From: an archaeon | Lineage (GTDB): Archaea > EX4484-52 > B79-G9 | NCBI GenBank assembly: GCA_043813875.1 | Contig: JBDRKP010000023.1 | Coordinates: 1-39,548 of the forward strand | Length of the DNA stretch: 39,548 bases | Direction of reading: 5' to 3' | Shown: in pieces, positions 19,207 through 28,437 of the stretch | Position numbering within the stretch: position 1 is the first letter of the stretch | Layout: each line of letters begins with the position of its first letter | Notes under the pieces: generated by a model | Told to the model about the DNA's origin: nothing | The model's input: the letters and a program-made list of their open reading frames with translations, nothing else | Database searches by the model: none | Program-made: the position numbers and the translations under genes

Positions 19207-20502
19207 ATGGGCAAAAAAACAAAACTAAACATCGGCTGCGGCATAATCTACCGGCCAGGCTACATAAACATAGACAAATATGAAGATTCTGTAGCAGACA
19301 TGACTCACGATGCAGACGACCTGCCATTTGAATCAAACACCATTGACACCATAGAAGCTCTTCATCTAATAGAGCATTTCGATTATATTCACTCAATTTA
19401 TGTTCTATCCGAATGGTTCCGAATATTAAAACCAGAAGGTACACTAACACTTGAAACACCCGACCTGAACAAATCATTCAAAAAACTCAAAAAAGAATCC
19501 CTAAAAAACCAGAAAACAACACTTCAGTGGCTCTATGGCATAGATTCATGCGGCATGCAGCACAAGACAATATTTACATTTGAATTACTAAAAAAACATC
19601 TGGAAGATATCGGTTTTCAAAACATAGTAAAAGAGCCGCAAAAAACACACAAATACGAACCTGGGCTGCGCATCATATGTAAAAAACCCATCAACTCGAG
19701 AAAAAAAGAGACATTCGCAACATTTCGCAAAAACCTCAAAAAACAACTAAAAATTGATGATTCCGACACTCTTTTAAGCCTTGAAAACCACTGTATCATC
19801 AAAATATCAGACCTATTCTTCAGCAACACTAATTTTAGCAAAAATGAATCCTTAATCAAACTGATCTCAAAATCAGCAATATGCAACCCGAAAATATCCC
19901 TCGTTCTCTGCAACACACTTCTTGAATCTGGTGAAATAACAAAAGAGGAATATGATTCAAAACTAAGTCCCCTAAACACACTAATAAATATGGAATTTCA
20001 CAAAAAGCTGTTCACACTTTGGTCCAAACACAAAAAGACCATTCAAAATACAGATTTGGATTACAGGACATTTATAGAAAATACAGAATCACGGTTGATT
20101 TCATTTATCAAAAACAGTGACATGGAGCAAGTAGTATATATTGATTCACAAAATCCGTCTGATATCGTTCTTTTCAATCGTCATGTAATCGAACTGCAAG
20201 CAAGAATATTATTCAATCGGGCCGTAAAACAGTTTTCAAAAAAAAATCATCACGAATCCCTAGAACTATTTAGGGGCTCAATAAAGCTCAACCCTCAGAA
20301 CCCCTTATCATACTGGAACATCGCAAGACTAGCCATGATTCTAGACCATCAAACAGAATCAATACTAGAGGGCTACGAAAATGCTCTACTCGCAATAAAA
20401 GACAAAAAAATCAAGAATCTAATCAAAAAAGAATTCGATCAATACACAACAAACAAAATTCAAATAATACCAAAAGAACCGATATCCGAAGATGTGCTAT
20501 AA
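19207..20502 (+). CDS. SAM-dependent methyltransferase (type 11-like) with C-terminal TPR-like repeat
   Basis: LNIGCG, GYINID, DLPFESNTID, HLIEHF, WFRILKPEG; C-terminal LFNRAVKQF...SIKLNPQNPLSYWNIA. Confidence 0.8.
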   Translation: MGKKTKLNIGCGIIYRPGYINIDKYEDSVADMTHDADDLPFESNTIDTIEALHLIEHFDYIHSIYVLSEWFRILKPEGTLTLETPDLNKSFKKLKKESLKNQKTTLQWLYGIDSCGMQHKTIFTFELLKKHLEDIGFQNIVKEPQKTHKYEPGLRIICKKPINSRKKETFATFRKNLKKQLKIDDSDTLLSLENHCIIKISDLFFSNTNFSKNESLIKLISKSAICNPKISLVLCNTLLESGEITKEEYDSKLSPLNTLINMEFHKKLFTLWSKHKKTIQNTDLDYRTFIENTESRLISFIKNSDMEQVVYIDSQNPSDIVLFNRHVIELQARILFNRAVKQFSKKNHHESLELFRGSIKLNPQNPLSYWNIARLAMILDHQTESILEGYENALLAIKDKKIKNLIKKEFDQYTTNKIQIIPKEPISEDVL

Positions 20503-20522
20503 TCTGTCAAATCAACCATGGA

Positions 20523-20534
20523 AATATATATATA
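20523..20534 (+). promoter_or_regulatory. TATA-box candidate for the paralog-rSAM operon (leaderless)
   Basis: AATATATATATA about 26-37 nt upstream of ATG 20560; no SD before that ATG. Confidence 0.5.
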
Positions 20535-20559
20535 CGTGATTCGTCATTAATTATAATCA

Positions 20560-20943
20560 ATGCGTACTGATAAACTTATTCGAATTGGCAGCAAATTGAA
20601 TATCTCATCTGAGGACATAAAAAACATCAAAAAAACCACGTTGATTTCAAACCTGAAATATTATATCGCCACAGCCGTAATCGCAATATTGACCTTCATT
20701 CTGGGGTTTTTTGCCGGAAGCGGCACATGCCCCGTCACATCCTCTATATCTTCTGGTTATCCTTTCGCAGGCGGTCTCACCGCTTTTGGAGCATCTGCTA
20801 GCCAAAAACGCACCACAAAAATCGCGGGAATAATACTGGTAGCAGCAGGTTTTTTTATTGCTCTGAAAACATCACCAATATTTGGCGAGGCTATAAAGTA
20901 TAATGTCTTCAGTAAATATAGACAAGGAGGTAATTCTCATTAA
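20560..20943 (+). CDS. Small membrane protein, paralog 1 (candidate rSAM substrate)
   Basis: KLIRIGSKLNISSEDIKNI; TM IAILTFILGFFAG; loop GTCPVTSSISSGYPFAGG; second TM; PIFGEAIKYNVFSK. Confidence 0.85.
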   Translation: MRTDKLIRIGSKLNISSEDIKNIKKTTLISNLKYYIATAVIAILTFILGFFAGSGTCPVTSSISSGYPFAGGLTAFGASASQKRTTKIAGIILVAAGFFIALKTSPIFGEAIKYNVFSKYRQGGNSH

Positions 20944-21316
20944 CGAAAAGATACTTCAGATAGGAAGCAAACTAAACATTTCAGCACAGGACATCAAAGA
21001 TATTCAAAATCACAATACTAAAAACAGTATATTATCTCCGATTACCGGCGGTATTATCGCAATATTATCCACAATACTGGGTTTTTTTATTGGAATGACC
21101 ACCGCAGGTTGTACAAACTGCAATGGCTACCCATTTGCATCAGCAGGTCTTGCATCAACTGCCCAAAAAACAGGCAGCAAAAAATATCTCACTCCTGCTG
21201 TAATAATAACAGCTTTAGTGTCAATAATGGGATTTGCAGTCGCTTATAGTGTAGCGCAAAATATGTTTGGTTATGGCATAATGTATGATGTTTACAAAAA
21301 GGAGGTCATAAGATGA
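20939..21316 (+). CDS. Small membrane protein, paralog 2; probable ATT start (alternative ATG 20903)
   Basis: (I)NEKILQIGSKLNISAQDIKDI; TM IAILSTILGFFIG; loop GCTNCNGYPFAS; MFGYGIMYDVYKK; SD GGAGGT at 20926-20931. Confidence 0.8.
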   Translation: MNEKILQIGSKLNISAQDIKDIQNHNTKNSILSPITGGIIAILSTILGFFIGMTTAGCTNCNGYPFASAGLASTAQKTGSKKYLTPAVIITALVSIMGFAVAYSVAQNMFGYGIMYDVYKKEVIR

Positions 21317-21666
21317 TGAATCAGAAACTACAGGAAATAGGAAACAAACTGGCTGTATCAGAGCATGACATAAAAACTATCCAAAAAACACATACATTAT
21401 CAAATATCAAATATTATATTACGGCAGTCATAATCGCAACACTCGCATTCATTCTCGGCTTTTTCGCAGGACAAGGCACATGTCCGGCATCGCCCGCGGG
21501 TTATCCTTTCGCAGGTGGTCTCACTGCTCTGGGCGCATCAGGCAGCCAAAAGCGCACCACAAAGCTCGCAGGACTTCTACTGGCAGCAATCGGCTTTTTC
21601 ATTGCACTCAAAACCACACCAATTTTCGGTCAGGCGATAGACTACAACGTCTACTCAAAAAAATAA
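21313..21666 (+). CDS. Small membrane protein, paralog 3
   Basis: MNQKLQEIGNKLAVSEHDIKTI; TM IATLAFILGFFAG; loop GTCPASPAGYPFAGG; PIFGQAIDYNVYSKK; SD GGAGGT and ATGA overlap with paralog 2. Confidence 0.85.
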   Translation: MMNQKLQEIGNKLAVSEHDIKTIQKTHTLSNIKYYITAVIIATLAFILGFFAGQGTCPASPAGYPFAGGLTALGASGSQKRTTKLAGLLLAAIGFFIALKTTPIFGQAIDYNVYSKK

Positions 21667-24127: not shown

Positions 24128-25654
24128 ATGATTTACATCACCACATCCCCCCTCGGTCTCTTTGCGACAGATGAAAAAGGAAACGAAGTCGCATGCATGC
24201 TCTTTTCAAAAGACCCTAAGATCGCAAAAAAGCAATACTCAGATTCACTGAAAAAAGAACTCTTCAAAGAAGAAAATGAACTGATAGGCAAACTCAAAAC
24301 CAGTGATTTGATTTTCGAGATAAAAAAAGACGCATATAAACACATATTCCCTAATCCCGCAGGCATTTATGTGCGAAGCAATCTTCTGCGCCTCGCACAA
24401 AAAAATAGCTTCAAGCCAGCCGAATTCAATCGGTTCTTGTATGACATCAACTTCGAGATCACAGCAGACGCCATGCGCAACCAGCGCACAGACGACAAGC
24501 TCATAATCCAGGCCGTGACCGCCATAGACGACCTTGACAAGGCCATAAACGTCATGTGCATGCGCCTGCGCGAATGGTACGGCCTCTACTTCCCCGAAGC
24601 CAGCGAGAGGATAAGCGACAACGAAAAGTTCGCAAAATACATCTCCGAGACACTCTACAGGACAGACATAAACAACATCAGCATCGAAGATACCGTCGGC
24701 TCGGAAATGAAATCCGATGACTTGAAGGAGCAGAAGATGTTCGCGCAATCAATCGAAAACCTCTTTGCTGAGCGCAAGGAACTCGAGAAGTACATCAACA
24801 GGAAGTGCTTGGAAGTCATCCCCAACATGACCGCGATAATCGGTGCAGAGCAGGCATCACGCATCTTGGCGCACGCAGGCAGCACAGAAAAGCTCGCCAA
24901 ATTCCCCTCATCGACGATACAGATACTCGGCGCAGAAAAAGCCCTCTTCCGCTACCTTCACAACGTCGGCACAAGCCCCAAGCACGGCATAATCTTCAAC
25001 ACCGGCTACATCCAGCGCACCCCGAAAGATTACAGGGGAAAGATTGCCCGTATCCTTGCAAGCAAACTGTCGCTCGCATCAAAACTCGATTTCTACAAAG
25101 GCGTATTCAGAGGCGACAGTCTGAGAGCTGACATGGACAAAGCCCTGGAAGAGGTACTCAAAGCAAAGCCCAAAAAAGACAGGTCACAGAGAATCCAGGC
25201 TCAAGGGCGATTTCAGGAAAAAAAGCAGTCAGGACAAGATACAGGCTTAAAGAAAGATAGCCGTCCTCCGTTCCAGCAGCCATCTAAAAATAAAGACCGC
25301 AACTCAAAAGTTTATGCAAGAGCTCAATATTCAACACCAGGAAGACAATCTCAACCCTCCCAAGGCCGCTACAAAGAACCTCAGCCGGGATTCCCGACAA
25401 GACAATCGCCTGCAAGATCTCAATATTCAACCCCTGTAAGACAATCTCAACCATCCCAGGACCGATACAAAGAGAATCATGCTGGTTTCCCTGCGAGACA
25501 ATCACCCGCAAGAGCTCAATATCCAACACCCGGAAGACAATCTCAACCCTCCCAAGGCCGCTACAAAGAACCTCAGCCGGGTTCCCAGGACAGACCAAAG
25601 CGCAATGAAGATCCATTCAGGAGATTCAAGAAAAAGAAGCACAAGAGAAGATAA
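24128..25654 (+). CDS. nop5: C/D box RNP subunit Nop5 (aNop56) with long repeat-containing C-terminal tail
   Basis: RLREWYGLYFPE, PSSTIQILGAEKALF, SPKHGIIF, RGKIARILASK. Confidence 0.95.
   Translation: MIYITTSPLGLFATDEKGNEVACMLFSKDPKIAKKQYSDSLKKELFKEENELIGKLKTSDLIFEIKKDAYKHIFPNPAGIYVRSNLLRLAQKNSFKPAEFNRFLYDINFEITADAMRNQRTDDKLIIQAVTAIDDLDKAINVMCMRLREWYGLYFPEASERISDNEKFAKYISETLYRTDINNISIEDTVGSEMKSDDLKEQKMFAQSIENLFAERKELEKYINRKCLEVIPNMTAIIGAEQASRILAHAGSTEKLAKFPSSTIQILGAEKALFRYLHNVGTSPKHGIIFNTGYIQRTPKDYRGKIARILASKLSLASKLDFYKGVFRGDSLRADMDKALEEVLKAKPKKDRSQRIQAQGRFQEKKQSGQDTGLKKDSRPPFQQPSKNKDRNSKVYARAQYSTPGRQSQPSQGRYKEPQPGFPTRQSPARSQYSTPVRQSQPSQDRYKENHAGFPARQSPARAQYPTPGRQSQPSQGRYKEPQPGSQDRPKRNEDPFRRFKKKKHKRR
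25316..25582 (+). repeat. 96-bp (32-aa) coding tandem repeat, about 2.8 copies, in nop5
   Basis: Units start at 25316, 25412 and 25508: ARAQYSTPGRQSQPSQGRYKEPQPGFPTRQSP and variants. Confidence 0.95.
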
Positions 25655-25759
25655 TATCAATTTCTCCTTATTATTTCTATCGGCATGATATACGGATTAT
25701 CTATATATAACTAAAACCCTCAAAAGAAATTGAAATTAAAATTCGTTGAGGCGTATAAA

Positions 25760-26688
25760 ATGGATTCAAAGGATGCATTGGTTGTTTTTCAGGGTAATAA
25801 GATAAGAAGGATATGGCACGAATCAGAGTGGTATTTTTCTGTAGTTGATATTGTTGCTGTCTTGACTGATAGCGCAAATCCAAATAATTACTGGAAAGTT
25901 CTAAAGCATAGAGAATCTCAGTTGGTTACAATTTGTAACCAACTCAAATTACCGTCAGCAGATGGTAAATATTATGGTACTGATTGTGTAAATACTAGAA
26001 ATGCTTTTCGCCTTATCCAGTCAATCCCCTCAAAAAAAGCAGAGCCCTTCAAGCAGTGGCTGGCAAAAGTAGGCTATGAAAGGGTACAGGAAATAGAGAA
26101 CCCCGAACTTGCGCAAGCAAGGATGAAACAGATATATGAACAAAAAGGATACTCAAAAGGCTGGATCGAAAAAAGGCTAAGAGGAATCGCAGTACGGCAG
26201 GAACTGACAGAAGAGTGGAAAACAAGAGGCGTAAACAGCAGTATAGAATTTGCGATACTGACAAACGAGATATCAAAGGCGACCTTCGGAAAGACAGTTG
26301 AAGAGTACAAACAACACAAGAGCCTGAAAAAAGAAAACCTGCGCGACCATTTTCAAGGTTTAATCAGCTGCGATGCATAACGAACCTTGAAAAGCTTGAA
26401 ACTCACAAAAGTGTAAAGAAGTTTCATGACATGACCGATCTTGAACTCATATTCTCAATGTTGGGGGAAGCATCGACAACAAAAATAGCACGAAACAAAG
26501 ATGCTCGCGGTTTTGAAGAGAACAGATACGCAGCCAACGAAGGCGGAACAGTAGCAGGAATCGCAAGAAAAGAACTGGAAAAAAGAATCGGCGAGGAGAT
26601 TGTTACAGATGAAAATTACCTGGAAGAACCAGAGAAAGTAAAACGGCTTGGAAAACAATCAGACACAAGCGATATTGATAAAAAATAA
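25760..26688 (+). pseudogene. BRO-N-domain (phage antirepressor-like) gene interrupted by an 80-nt insertion
   Basis: IRRIWH..EWYFSVVDIV, RLIQSIPSKKAEPFKQWLA...ENLRDH continues naturally as MTDLELIFSMLGEAST in another frame at 26431. Confidence 0.8.
26351..26430. mobile_element. Small double-hairpin insertion (REP/MITE-like or intron-like)
   Basis: Stem 1 TTTTCAAGGTT (26350-60) / AACCTTGAAAA (26383-93); stem 2 TGAAACT (26397-403) / AGTTTCA (26420-26). Confidence 0.6.
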
Positions 26689-26748: not shown

Positions 26749-27399
26749 ATGTCAGACAATAACATACACCGGATTGGCCGCGAATATGCGACATTAAGCA
26801 TAGCGCCCAAAAAGAAAGTCTACGACGAAAAGATAATCCGTCGCGGAAAAGACGAATTCCGTATCTGGGACCCGACGAAATCAAAACTGGGCGCAGCCCT
26901 TGAAAAAGGCCTCAAAAACACCCCATTCTTCAAAGGGATGAAGATACTCTACCTTGGCGCAGCCAACGGCACGACGCCATCCCACATATCAGACATCGTA
27001 ACCGAGACCGGCCTCCTATACTCCGTAGAATTCTCGCCCCGCTCGATGCGCGACCTCATCTCCGTCTCACGCTCACGCAAAAACATAATACCTATCCTTG
27101 CCGACGCAAGGATGCCAGACACCTACGCAAACAGGCTGGAGCAAGTAGACCTCATATACTGCGACGTGGCCCAGCCCGACCAGACAGAGATACTATTAAG
27201 GAACGCTGAAATATTCCTGAAGAAAGGCGGCTACATAATGATCGCCATAAAAGCGCGCAGCATAAACGTCGTAAGAAACCCCAAAGAGATATACGCAGAA
27301 GAAAGGGAAAAACTAAAAAAAGGCTTCGACATCCTCGAGGAAATCAACCTCCACCCACTCGAAAAAGACCATGCATTCTTCGTCGCAAAACAGAGATGA
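26749..27399 (+). CDS. flpA: Fibrillarin-like rRNA/tRNA 2'-O-methyltransferase
   Basis: RIWDPTKSKLGAA, LYLGAANGTTPSHISD, VEFSPR, DVAQPDQ, IKARSI. Confidence 0.97.
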   Translation: MSDNNIHRIGREYATLSIAPKKKVYDEKIIRRGKDEFRIWDPTKSKLGAALEKGLKNTPFFKGMKILYLGAANGTTPSHISDIVTETGLLYSVEFSPRSMRDLISVSRSRKNIIPILADARMPDTYANRLEQVDLIYCDVAQPDQTEILLRNAEIFLKKGGYIMIAIKARSINVVRNPKEIYAEEREKLKKGFDILEEINLHPLEKDHAFFVAKQR

Positions 27400-27768: not shown

Positions 27769-28437
27769 TCACCCGATGGCATTCCCTTTTTTCTTGATTT
27801 TAATTAGACAGCCATTATCCAGATCGCCATAGGAACTGACATAAACTCCATATAAAAAATCAGCCACATTATGCTTCTGTTTGCCTCCATGTTCATTCCA
27901 TGAAGGGTCATTGACATAGACATATCTCTCATCAATCCCTGTGATGACATTAAAATTAAAATCAAAATTTGGATTGGGACCAACCAGAAAATTAGATGTC
28001 ATTAACGCCATAAGAGGTCGTTTTTCCTTTATTTCCACGAGGATGTCCTCTTTATCTGGAATCTTGACTTTGATGGATCCGCCCATTTTCAAGAAATCAA
28101 TAAAATAAAACAAAGCTTTTTTATTTCGTTCTGAATTTAAACAATCAGACATACTGTTTAAATGCGCCATTATTTCATCCGGTTTTTTTCCTCTATCCAT
28201 ATTTGTAAAAAGAGCAGGATGCAGAAAGACAATTTCAACATCAAATCCTTTTTTTATTAGATAAGAACCGAGTTGGGGCGCATATGTTCCTACAGAATCC
28301 GCCTCAATTTCATCTTTTAACTTATCAAAAGAAATAGTGATTCCATAATATTCAAGAACCATGTTTAAGCAAGCAATTCCGCAGTATACAGAATCTTTTG
28401 GTTTCCTGATCAACGCAACATCAAGCATCATAATCAT
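27769..28437 (-). CDS. Peptidase C39-like (papain-fold) protein
   Basis: YCGIACLNMVLEYYG; NFNVITGID..YVYVNDP (the expected His is not evident). Confidence 0.7.
   Translation of the reverse strand: MIMMLDVALIRKPKDSVYCGIACLNMVLEYYGITISFDKLKDEIEADSVGTYAPQLGSYLIKKGFDVEIVFLHPALFTNMDRGKKPDEIMAHLNSMSDCLNSERNKKALFYFIDFLKMGGSIKVKIPDKEDILVEIKEKRPLMALMTSNFLVGPNPNFDFNFNVITGIDERYVYVNDPSWNEHGGKQKHNVADFLYGVYVSSYGDLDNGCLIKIKKKGNAIG

Follow-up and report, generated by a model that had tools for sequence, protein, structure and literature searches.

Small membrane proteins linked to a radical SAM/SPASM enzyme and a methyltransferase-TPR protein in archaea: candidate substrates with conserved tyrosine motifs

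We found a compact three-part gene cassette in which small membrane proteins are encoded between a protein combining methyltransferase and TPR parts (MT-TPR) and a radical S-adenosylmethionine (SAM) enzyme with a SPASM domain (hereafter the rSAM). It lies in the 39,548-nucleotide stretch of DNA analyzed here (the window), which is contig JBDRKP010000023.1 (assembly GCA_043813875.1) of a 1.64 Mb archaeal genome bin that is 91.5% complete (G000). The window carries archaeal housekeeping genes (Nop5/56, fibrillarin and S17e), and the order around the cassette is pyruvate kinase > MT-TPR > three small genes (paralogs 1, 2 and 3) > rSAM > S17e > beta-carbonic anhydrase. The linkage of the small genes with those of the rSAM and the MT-TPR holds across phyla. 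From the sequences, we put at slightly better than even the reading in which the rSAM has the small proteins as its substrates and modifies them at nearly invariant Tyr motifs, with a conserved N-terminal helix as the handle for the enzyme. We lean to the same degree towards regarding the cassette as a variant of rSAM-dependent modification of ribosomal peptides and proteins, which in this case would have membrane proteins as substrates.

Linkage of the small genes with the rSAM and MT-TPR genes

An initial reading made from the letters of the window (the original prediction) had tied the small genes to the rSAM gene and to a gene with TPRs, a connection that the comparison of genomes bears out across phyla. 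The same cassette occupies the same place in three other genomes of the genus, with a single small gene in G004, one at a contig end in G003 and five in tandem in G005, one of the five being of the divergent paralog 2 type. The genus search recovered orthologs of the rSAM only in G000, G004 and G005, where the small genes co-occur with them. The carbonic anhydrase gene of G001 and G002 directly follows that for pyruvate kinase, with no cassette between them, which indicates that gain or loss affects the cassette as a whole. The family search at E<=1e-5 of the other 34 genomes of the order or phylum found neither a small gene nor an rSAM; weak family matches in G011, G015 and G019 (E 0.003-0.01, in frames of 186-2428 aa) did not recur at this threshold and were set aside as noise.

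A scan of species genomes used a narrower alignment and one pattern, the broad family alignments having no stretch conserved enough, and gave 5 loci, so that the taxonomic range is under-sampled. One of the 5 is the G005 contig, which carries a Nanohalarchaeota label. A metagenome-assembled genome (MAG) labeled Aenigmatarchaeota has the order MT-TPR > two small genes > rSAM, and one labeled Thermoplasmata has three small genes of a three-helix type (see below) together with the rSAM gene, its MT-TPR gene being on a different contig. In a Dehalococcoidia-labeled MAG, the MT-TPR gene is followed by one small gene and the contig end, and a 2.7 kb contig labeled Patescibacteria holds all three components; the two bacterial labels are binning labels only. 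We also noted in the Thermoplasmata-labeled MAG a membrane-anchored protein encoded between small genes 1 and 2 (L034:4509-5291, minus strand), which by eye resembles a NosD-like right-handed beta-helix.

The metagenome scan was seeded from the rSAM rather than the small protein and scored all stop-to-stop open reading frames with the family hidden Markov model, giving 80 loci. The rSAM is at least 56% identical in 21 of these, and 18 of the 21 have one to four family genes beside it, always upstream (L042 has one downstream extra). Two of the remaining close loci have less than 140 nt of upstream DNA and the third is L046, in which the MT-TPR gene abuts the rSAM gene, so that 18 of 19 informative loci are positive. 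The MT-TPR gene is found in 14 of the 21; the contigs of the other 7 stop no more than about 140 nt ahead of the first small gene or the rSAM gene, and wherever a locus has sufficient DNA on that side, the MT-TPR gene lies upstream of the small genes. Neither a small gene nor an MT-TPR gene accompanies the rSAM in the 59 more distant loci. Cassettes are compact, with gaps of 12-57 nt or overlaps, and thus have no room for another candidate substrate gene. In all loci read, they consist only of the MT-TPR gene, the small genes (one to five per enzyme pair) and the rSAM gene, with no leader protease or exporter, and no lipid or cofactor gene travels with them.

Conserved architecture of the small proteins

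Regular-expression checks recovered in all three paralogs the elements listed by the original prediction: an N-terminal K[LI]xxIGxKLx[IV]SxxDIKxI segment, an ILGFFxG motif, GYPFA, and a C-terminal FGxxIxY[ND]V[FY]xK. The basic patches (KRTTK, KTGSKK and KRTTK in paralogs 1, 2 and 3) and the second hydrophobic stretch are likewise present, YPFA is followed by GG in paralogs 1 and 3 but not in paralog 2, and the loops ahead of GYPFA read GTCPVTSSISS, AGCTNCN and GTCPASPA, with one, two and one Cys. The description of paralogs 1 and 3 as near-identical was overstated, as they share 67% identity; between paralogs 1 and 2 the figure is 38%. A search of their own genome with paralog 3 recovers the other two with E values of 6.3e-47 (paralog 1) and 6.4e-17 (paralog 2), a likeness far beyond chance.

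A HMMER profile search of 1.84 billion representatives returned 194 at E<=1e-3, of which 80 reach E<=1e-10 and 10 reach E<=1e-30; a word-indexed search returned just 7 proteins, including two from the window itself. One candidate member (P0082; 2112 aa with 12 matched stretches) was discarded as a translated low-complexity repeat. The three paralogs match no Pfam or NCBIfam model at cut-off and nothing in PHROGs or PADLOC. Across 136 members every Pfam match is below cut-off and no family matches more than three, the scattered sub-threshold matches including holin, claudin and ECF models. The original prediction had held that a match to a known transporter, holin or immunity family would tell against it, and none of these families matches the small proteins. 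A likeness of the N-terminal segment to a helix-turn-helix domain (Sigma70_r4) was rejected, being confined to 3 of the 136 members (best E 0.0028), and for the homolog P0159, named 'MtrG' by JGI, no MtrG model in Pfam is reached at E<=1. A Protein Atlas search gave unnamed clusters only (scores 0.78 and 0.76, below the 0.9 lead level). To judge by these comparisons, the small proteins are a family without an existing name or annotation.

Motifs were counted in 145 stored homologs of 100-180 aa, and conservation was read from an alignment of 136 sequences, four apparently truncated ones being excluded (numbering as in paralog 3). Two Tyr motifs stand out. The first, YP[FYLM], occurs in 140 of 145 homologs, with Y64 and P65 at 100% and [YF]66 at 95% in the alignment. 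The second, a Y-x-V-type motif in the tail, occurs in 139 of 145, with Y111 at 99%, V113 at 91% and [YF]114 at 94%. The residue ahead of Y111 is highly variable; behind it, 135 homologs have G (80), N (35), S (9), D (8), A (2) or E (1), giving a Y-[G/N]-V signature conserved at 99/84/91%. The N-terminal segment is conserved more loosely (K5, L6, I9, G10, L13, D19, I20 and I23 at 60-83% each), and helix 1 carries a GxxxG motif (G49 94%, G53 82%). The original prediction had seen in this N-terminal helix a leader-like docking site: the eight positions uphold it as a family-wide feature, and docking may be its role. In one subfamily (P0014, P0156-P0159; L036, L038, L039) there are two GYP[FY] motifs split by a Pro/Thr-rich linker and also two P[VI]FGQAIxYNV[YF] modules; P0156 also repeats the basic patch and helix that come before the module.

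Predicted structure and membrane topology

The AlphaFold2 (AF2) model of paralog 3, built on a 136-row alignment, has a predicted local distance difference test (pLDDT) score of 75.9 and places helices at residues 4-12, 17-54, 69-74 and 84-100, with pLDDT 87-94 over residues 1-40, a poorly defined loop after helix 17-54 and a floppy tail. Hydropathy identifies two strong hydrophobic segments in 110 of 136 members, and a third, right behind YP[FY], in 24. The charge counts of the three-segment members, net +1 to +6 for the loop past the extra helix and averaging about -1 for the tail, fit an N-in, loop-out, basic-patch-in, tail-out arrangement. The AF2 model of a three-helix homolog (pLDDT 78.2; predicted template modeling score 0.63) has helices at residues 17-54, 68-100 and 106-132, the second starting exactly at YPY. 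The poly-Thr and Pro/Thr linkers ahead of YP[FY] look extracellular from their sequences, and the two-helix paralogs of the window could possibly be N-in with the tail also inside. The caveat in the original prediction that the loop might lie outside the cell stands, since both the charge counts and the three-helix model place the loop and YP[FY] there. Foldseek with the paralog 3 model found no match in the PDB at E<=0.001, and a wide VIA-align search with the three-helix model returned generic helical hairpins only (best Z 7.4).

The rSAM and MT-TPR proteins

The rSAM exceeds the Pfam cut-offs for Radical_SAM (87.8 bits) and for SPASM (34.5 bits). Across 23 sequences, C16, C20 and C23 of its CxxxCxxC motif (residues 16-23) are invariant, as are seven SPASM Cys (237, 255, 298, 301, 307, 311 and 328). 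The general seven-Cys motif is CX9-15GX4C ... CX2CX5CX3C ... C, and the first spacing in this enzyme is CX17C with GX4C. Its best solved relatives are SkfB (the closest), PqqE, SuiB and CteB, which align only from about their residue 104-111; the rSAM itself begins 15 residues ahead of the cluster motif, and no cassette protein matches an RRE/PqqD domain (RRE, RiPP recognition element; RiPP, a ribosomally made peptide with post-translational modifications) in Pfam or NCBIfam. The best NCBIfam model is TIGR04103 (Nif11-class peptide rSAM maturase 3), of which the rSAM is not a member because its 227.6 bits fall far under the cut-off of 725; TIGR03913 follows with 198.3 bits against 591.75, and the TIGR04133, AhbD, MftC and NirJ types score 118-144 bits (AhbD 134.7, NirJ 126.1).

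The MT-TPR protein reaches Pfam Methyltransf_23 (31.4 bits, cut-off 27) and Methyltransf_11 (28.3 bits, cut-off 21.2), and TPR_2 below cut-off (15.7 bits). Residues G10, G12, D23, D31, E56 and H57 of its SAM motifs are invariant in 16 orthologs, and its best NCBIfam row is a weak one to MftM (27.5 bits against a cut-off of 200). A three-chain complex prediction of MT-TPR, rSAM and paralog 3 was equaled by a control with chain 1 replaced and gives no evidence either way.

Separately, we observed a sister rSAM/SPASM clade (L056:1843-3274 and L059:445-1909) that is 39-41% identical, has no family name and scores under every NCBIfam cut-off. In both of its two loci with upstream DNA, the rSAM gene is preceded by one for a soluble protein of about 108-127 aa with a tail of the form ...RAGDYIAIQ[GN]Y.[RK]...; these soluble proteins may be a second family of Tyr-tail substrates.

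A proposed mechanism of substrate modification

We posit that the small membrane proteins, with two or three helices, would be dedicated substrates of the adjoining rSAM, with the MT-TPR protein helping. Their cytoplasmic N-terminal helix-turn-helix would be the handle by which an rSAM free of an RRE engages its substrate or is activated by it. The enzyme would act on one or both of the Tyr motifs, which are YP[FY], where the second hydrophobic stretch begins, and the tail's x-Y-[G/N/S/D]-V-[Y/F]; the MT-TPR protein would methylate the substrate or grip the hydrophobic protein via its TPR part. The end product would be the modified protein itself, resident in the membrane, as is suggested by a cassette without protease or exporter. 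Candidate chemistries are a splicease-like excision of tyramine, a Tyr cross-link or another reaction, and by analogy a triceptide-type cyclophane would be equally possible.

Several features argue for this enzyme and dedicated-substrate relationship, namely the linkage across phyla, the gain and loss of the cassette as a unit, the lack of any other substrate gene in it and the one to five small-gene copies per enzyme pair. The small proteins also have a precursor-like pattern, in which a conserved N-terminal helix is followed by a variable middle and two near-invariant Tyr motifs with a variable residue before Y111, and both Tyr motifs are duplicated within single proteins of one subfamily. 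On the enzyme side, the best NCBIfam models of the rSAM are peptide maturases, and its solved relatives point the same way.

Relationship to known radical SAM systems

By analogy, the nearest studied relatives of the cassette appear to be the tyramine spliceases, of which we compared the ternary PlpX/PlpY/PlpA and the binary RhaX/RhaA, RcsX and RasX systems. A review describes these as enzymes of the rSAM/SPASM type, which cut tyramine out of Nif11-type precursors at XYG sites. The reaction is defined by the loss of a tyramine equivalent (C8H9NO, 135.06 Da), which leaves an alpha-keto-beta-amino residue. According to Richter et al. (2024), binary spliceases operate without a Y/RRE protein, a leader alpha-helix binding and activating the enzyme, and splicing works on whole proteins as well. 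The cassette is similar in that an rSAM with a SPASM domain adjoins the (here candidate) ribosomal substrates, in that the tail Tyr, preceded by a variable residue as in the splice site and followed by G in 80 of 135 homologs, resembles XYG, in that an RRE-less rSAM is paired with a conserved N-terminal helix, and in that TIGR04103 is its best NCBIfam model. It differs in that the rSAM remains far from family membership by the scores above, in that the partners are membrane proteins of 115-170 aa rather than soluble Nif11/NHLP-type peptides, in that the window copies read Y-N, Y-D and Y-N rather than Y-G, in that the second invariant motif, YP[FY], has no counterpart among spliceases, and in that the MT-TPR protein is a fixed partner and the hosts are archaeal.

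Triceptides offer a second comparison, as YP[FY] (100/100/95%) and Y-[G/N]-V fit the aromatic-X2-X3 pattern cross-linked by 3-CyFE enzymes, though such a motif alone shows no cross-link. The rSAM has no recognizable 3-CyFE model among the best 25 of its 79 NCBIfam rows (the daropeptide-type DynA scores 78.9 bits), and triceptides are proteolytically released peptides, in contrast to the protease-free cassette and its candidate membrane-protein substrates. Mycofactocin synthesis is alike in that an rSAM/SPASM enzyme (MftC) acts on Val-Tyr at the tail of its precursor (MftA), while many members here read G-V-Y, and in that MftM gives the best, weak row for the MT-TPR protein. It is unlike the cassette in that the MftC model TIGR03962 reaches 130.4 bits against a cut-off of 265, V-[YF] is not the C-terminal end, having 2-10 residues beyond it, and genes for MftB, D, E and F are absent.

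Whole proteins can be targets of rSAM/SPASM enzymes, as with CrpC/CrpA of Methanococcus. CrpC and likewise QhpD (acting on QhpC) use an RRE and make Cys thioethers, unlike the cassette, in which there is neither an RRE nor a conserved Cys. The anaerobic sulfatase maturase modifies exported proteins ahead of export, and its model is absent from the best 25 of the 79 NCBIfam rows for the rSAM. Our literature search found no prior description of the cassette; it did not cover Scott et al. 2022 (Chem 8:2659), which reportedly catalogs spliceotide clusters from bacteria as well as archaea.

Counter-evidence and alternative explanations

Several observations weigh against the small proteins being rSAM substrates of a splicease-like system. 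The rSAM falls far under every NCBIfam cut-off and also scores with the tetrapyrrole-modifying AhbD and NirJ models, for which reason a non-peptide substrate is possible. The charge counts and the three-helix AF2 model of the longer homolog put YP[FY] and the tail outside the cell, so that modification would be needed before membrane insertion. The residue after the tail Tyr of the window paralogs (N, D and N) is not the G of the splicease XYG site, and even a genuine DYG site, that of RcsA, stayed unmodified. The equation of TIGR04103 with the PlpX family is drawn from names, a literature search on TIGR04103 having given nothing. Finally, in L046, a 3.6 kb contig, the MT-TPR gene abuts that of the rSAM with no small gene between.

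A quite unlikely alternative is that the small proteins are membrane anchors or subunits, whose N-terminal helix recruits the rSAM and MT-TPR proteins to act on a lipid, a tetrapyrrole-like compound or another membrane-bound molecule. Strict gene linkage suits such a complex as well as it does an enzyme-substrate pair, and so do the overlapping, apparently translationally coupled genes and the presence of two paralog types together in several cassettes; the GxxxG motif of helix 1 suggests packing or oligomers, and AhbD/NirJ-type models score 118-135 bits. However, one to five small-gene copies for a single enzyme pair sit poorly with an anchor, two near-invariant Tyr motifs duplicated within one protein have no obvious anchoring role, peptide maturases are the best matches of the enzyme, and the loci read have no lipid or cofactor gene with the cassette.

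The main interpretation in the original prediction was that of a classical RiPP, in which an N-terminal leader precedes a Cys-containing loop, the diversified core, that would receive a sactionine- or ranthionine-like thioether. The loop Cys present in all three window paralogs and the thioether makers among the solved relatives (SkfB, the closest, and CteB) speak for it, but the donor Cys that sacti- and ranthipeptides conserve is lacking in the family: the loop column holds Cys in only 10%, 70 of the 145 homologs have no Cys anywhere, and in G005, which has the same cassette type, the loop of one copy among the five is free of Cys. Elsewhere in the family the loop consists of a poly-Thr or Pro/Thr-rich linker and looks like a spacer ahead of YP[FY]. 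Nor does the cassette have an RRE, fused or alongside, a leader protease or exporter, or a short released core, and we regard this interpretation as highly improbable. The original prediction had named the loss of both Cys and GYPF in wider homologs as what would overturn it; the Cys is indeed not conserved, while GYPF holds, with Y-P at 100%. It had also put forward the C-terminal Tyr motif as an alternative target, which proves to be among the two best-conserved elements, and a Tyr motif is most likely a better target candidate than the loop Cys.

That the small proteins are functionally separate neighbors (immunity proteins, pores of the holin type or parts of a transporter), with the enzymes having some target not encoded here, is likewise very doubtful, for although small hydrophobic proteins next to RiPP enzymes are sometimes immunity proteins and there are the scattered sub-threshold holin, claudin and ECF matches, no Pfam family recurs beyond three members, PHROGs and PADLOC give nothing, and the compact cassettes without another substrate gene are linked across phyla.

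Gene starts and neighboring features

Coordinates of the cassette features are collected in Table 1. The AT-rich run ahead of paralog 1 is a possible archaeal promoter. Paralog 2 may start not at the ATG at 20903, inside paralog 1, but at a non-canonical ATT at 20939, which would give 125 aa. A Shine-Dalgarno-like AAGGAGGT at 20924-20931 lies 7 nt ahead of this in-frame ATT, the same octamer stands 6 nt upstream of the paralog 3 ATG, and the G005 counterpart of paralog 2 begins with MMYNEK at the aligned place. A search of sequencing runs listed no RNA run and only three DNA runs, each with part of the stretch.

Table 1. Positions of the cassette genes and of their main motifs in the window
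Feature	Positions	Strand	Equivalents in the other paralogs	Basis
MT-TPR protein, 431 aa: N-terminal class I SAM methyltransferase domain, helical/TPR C-terminal part	19207..20502	+		
TATA-like AT-rich run aaatatatatatac, 25-38 nt upstream of the paralog 1 ATG	20522..20535	+		sequence reading
Paralog 1, small membrane protein, 127 aa	20560..20943	+		
Paralog 2, divergent type, 137 aa counted from ATG	20903..21316	+		
Paralog 3, small membrane protein, 117 aa; ATG overlapping the paralog 2 stop	21313..21666	+		
N-terminal helix-turn-helix of paralog 3, K5-I23; proposed enzyme handle	21325..21381	+	20572-20628, 20948-21004	
GYPFA of paralog 3, Tyr64-Pro65	21499..21513	+	20755-20769, 21125-21139	
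C-terminal FGQAIDYNVYSK of paralog 3, Tyr111-x-Val113-Tyr114	21625..21660	+	20881-20916, 21266-21301	
Radical SAM/SPASM enzyme (rSAM), 340 aa	21679..22701	+		

Elsewhere in the window, a gene for a Bro-N domain protein (216 aa, Pfam Bro-N 46.9 bits) and an 85-aa open reading frame lie at 25730-26688, between the Nop5/56 (24128-25654) and fibrillarin (26749-27399) genes. In archaea these two genes usually stand side by side, and the arrangement could reflect insertion of a mobile element or the splitting of a gene. At its C-terminus the Nop5/56 homolog carries a long low-complexity tail, which contains three near-repeats, each about 35 aa long (AQYSTPGRQSQPSQGRYKEPQPGF), and is Lys-rich at its end. 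A stand-alone Peptidase_C39-like protein of 222 aa is encoded at 27769-28437 on the minus strand (Pfam 45.1 and 43.5 bits); it was rejected as a cassette member, being found with this query in 1 of 8 genus genomes (G000 only) and not in the cassette carriers G004 and G005.

Implications

Nearly all known peptide maturation by radical SAM enzymes concerns precursors that are short and soluble. In its boldest and rather unlikely form, our proposal is that of a horizontally mobile three-part system in which a splicease-related rSAM rewrites the backbone or side chain of Tyr in integral membrane proteins, its hosts being those behind the MAGs labeled DPANN and Thermoplasmata and perhaps bacteria. 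If this were true, these would be the first ribosomal membrane proteins with an alpha-keto-beta-amino residue of the splicease type, or with some other new group derived from Tyr. The enzyme would accept a relaxed X-Y-[G/N/S/D] site, an activating N-terminal helix would replace the RRE, a TPR-methyltransferase would be an obligatory partner, and the product might present a reactive or redox-active group on the cell surface.

If the rSAM does modify the small proteins, RiPP-type chemistry would extend to membrane proteins and to little-studied archaea. For engineering of proteins such as has already been carried out with spliceases, the cassette would supply a new pair of enzyme and substrate in which the recognition helix is built in and an RRE is dispensed with, and an unannotated family of at least 194 sequence clusters would gain a function.

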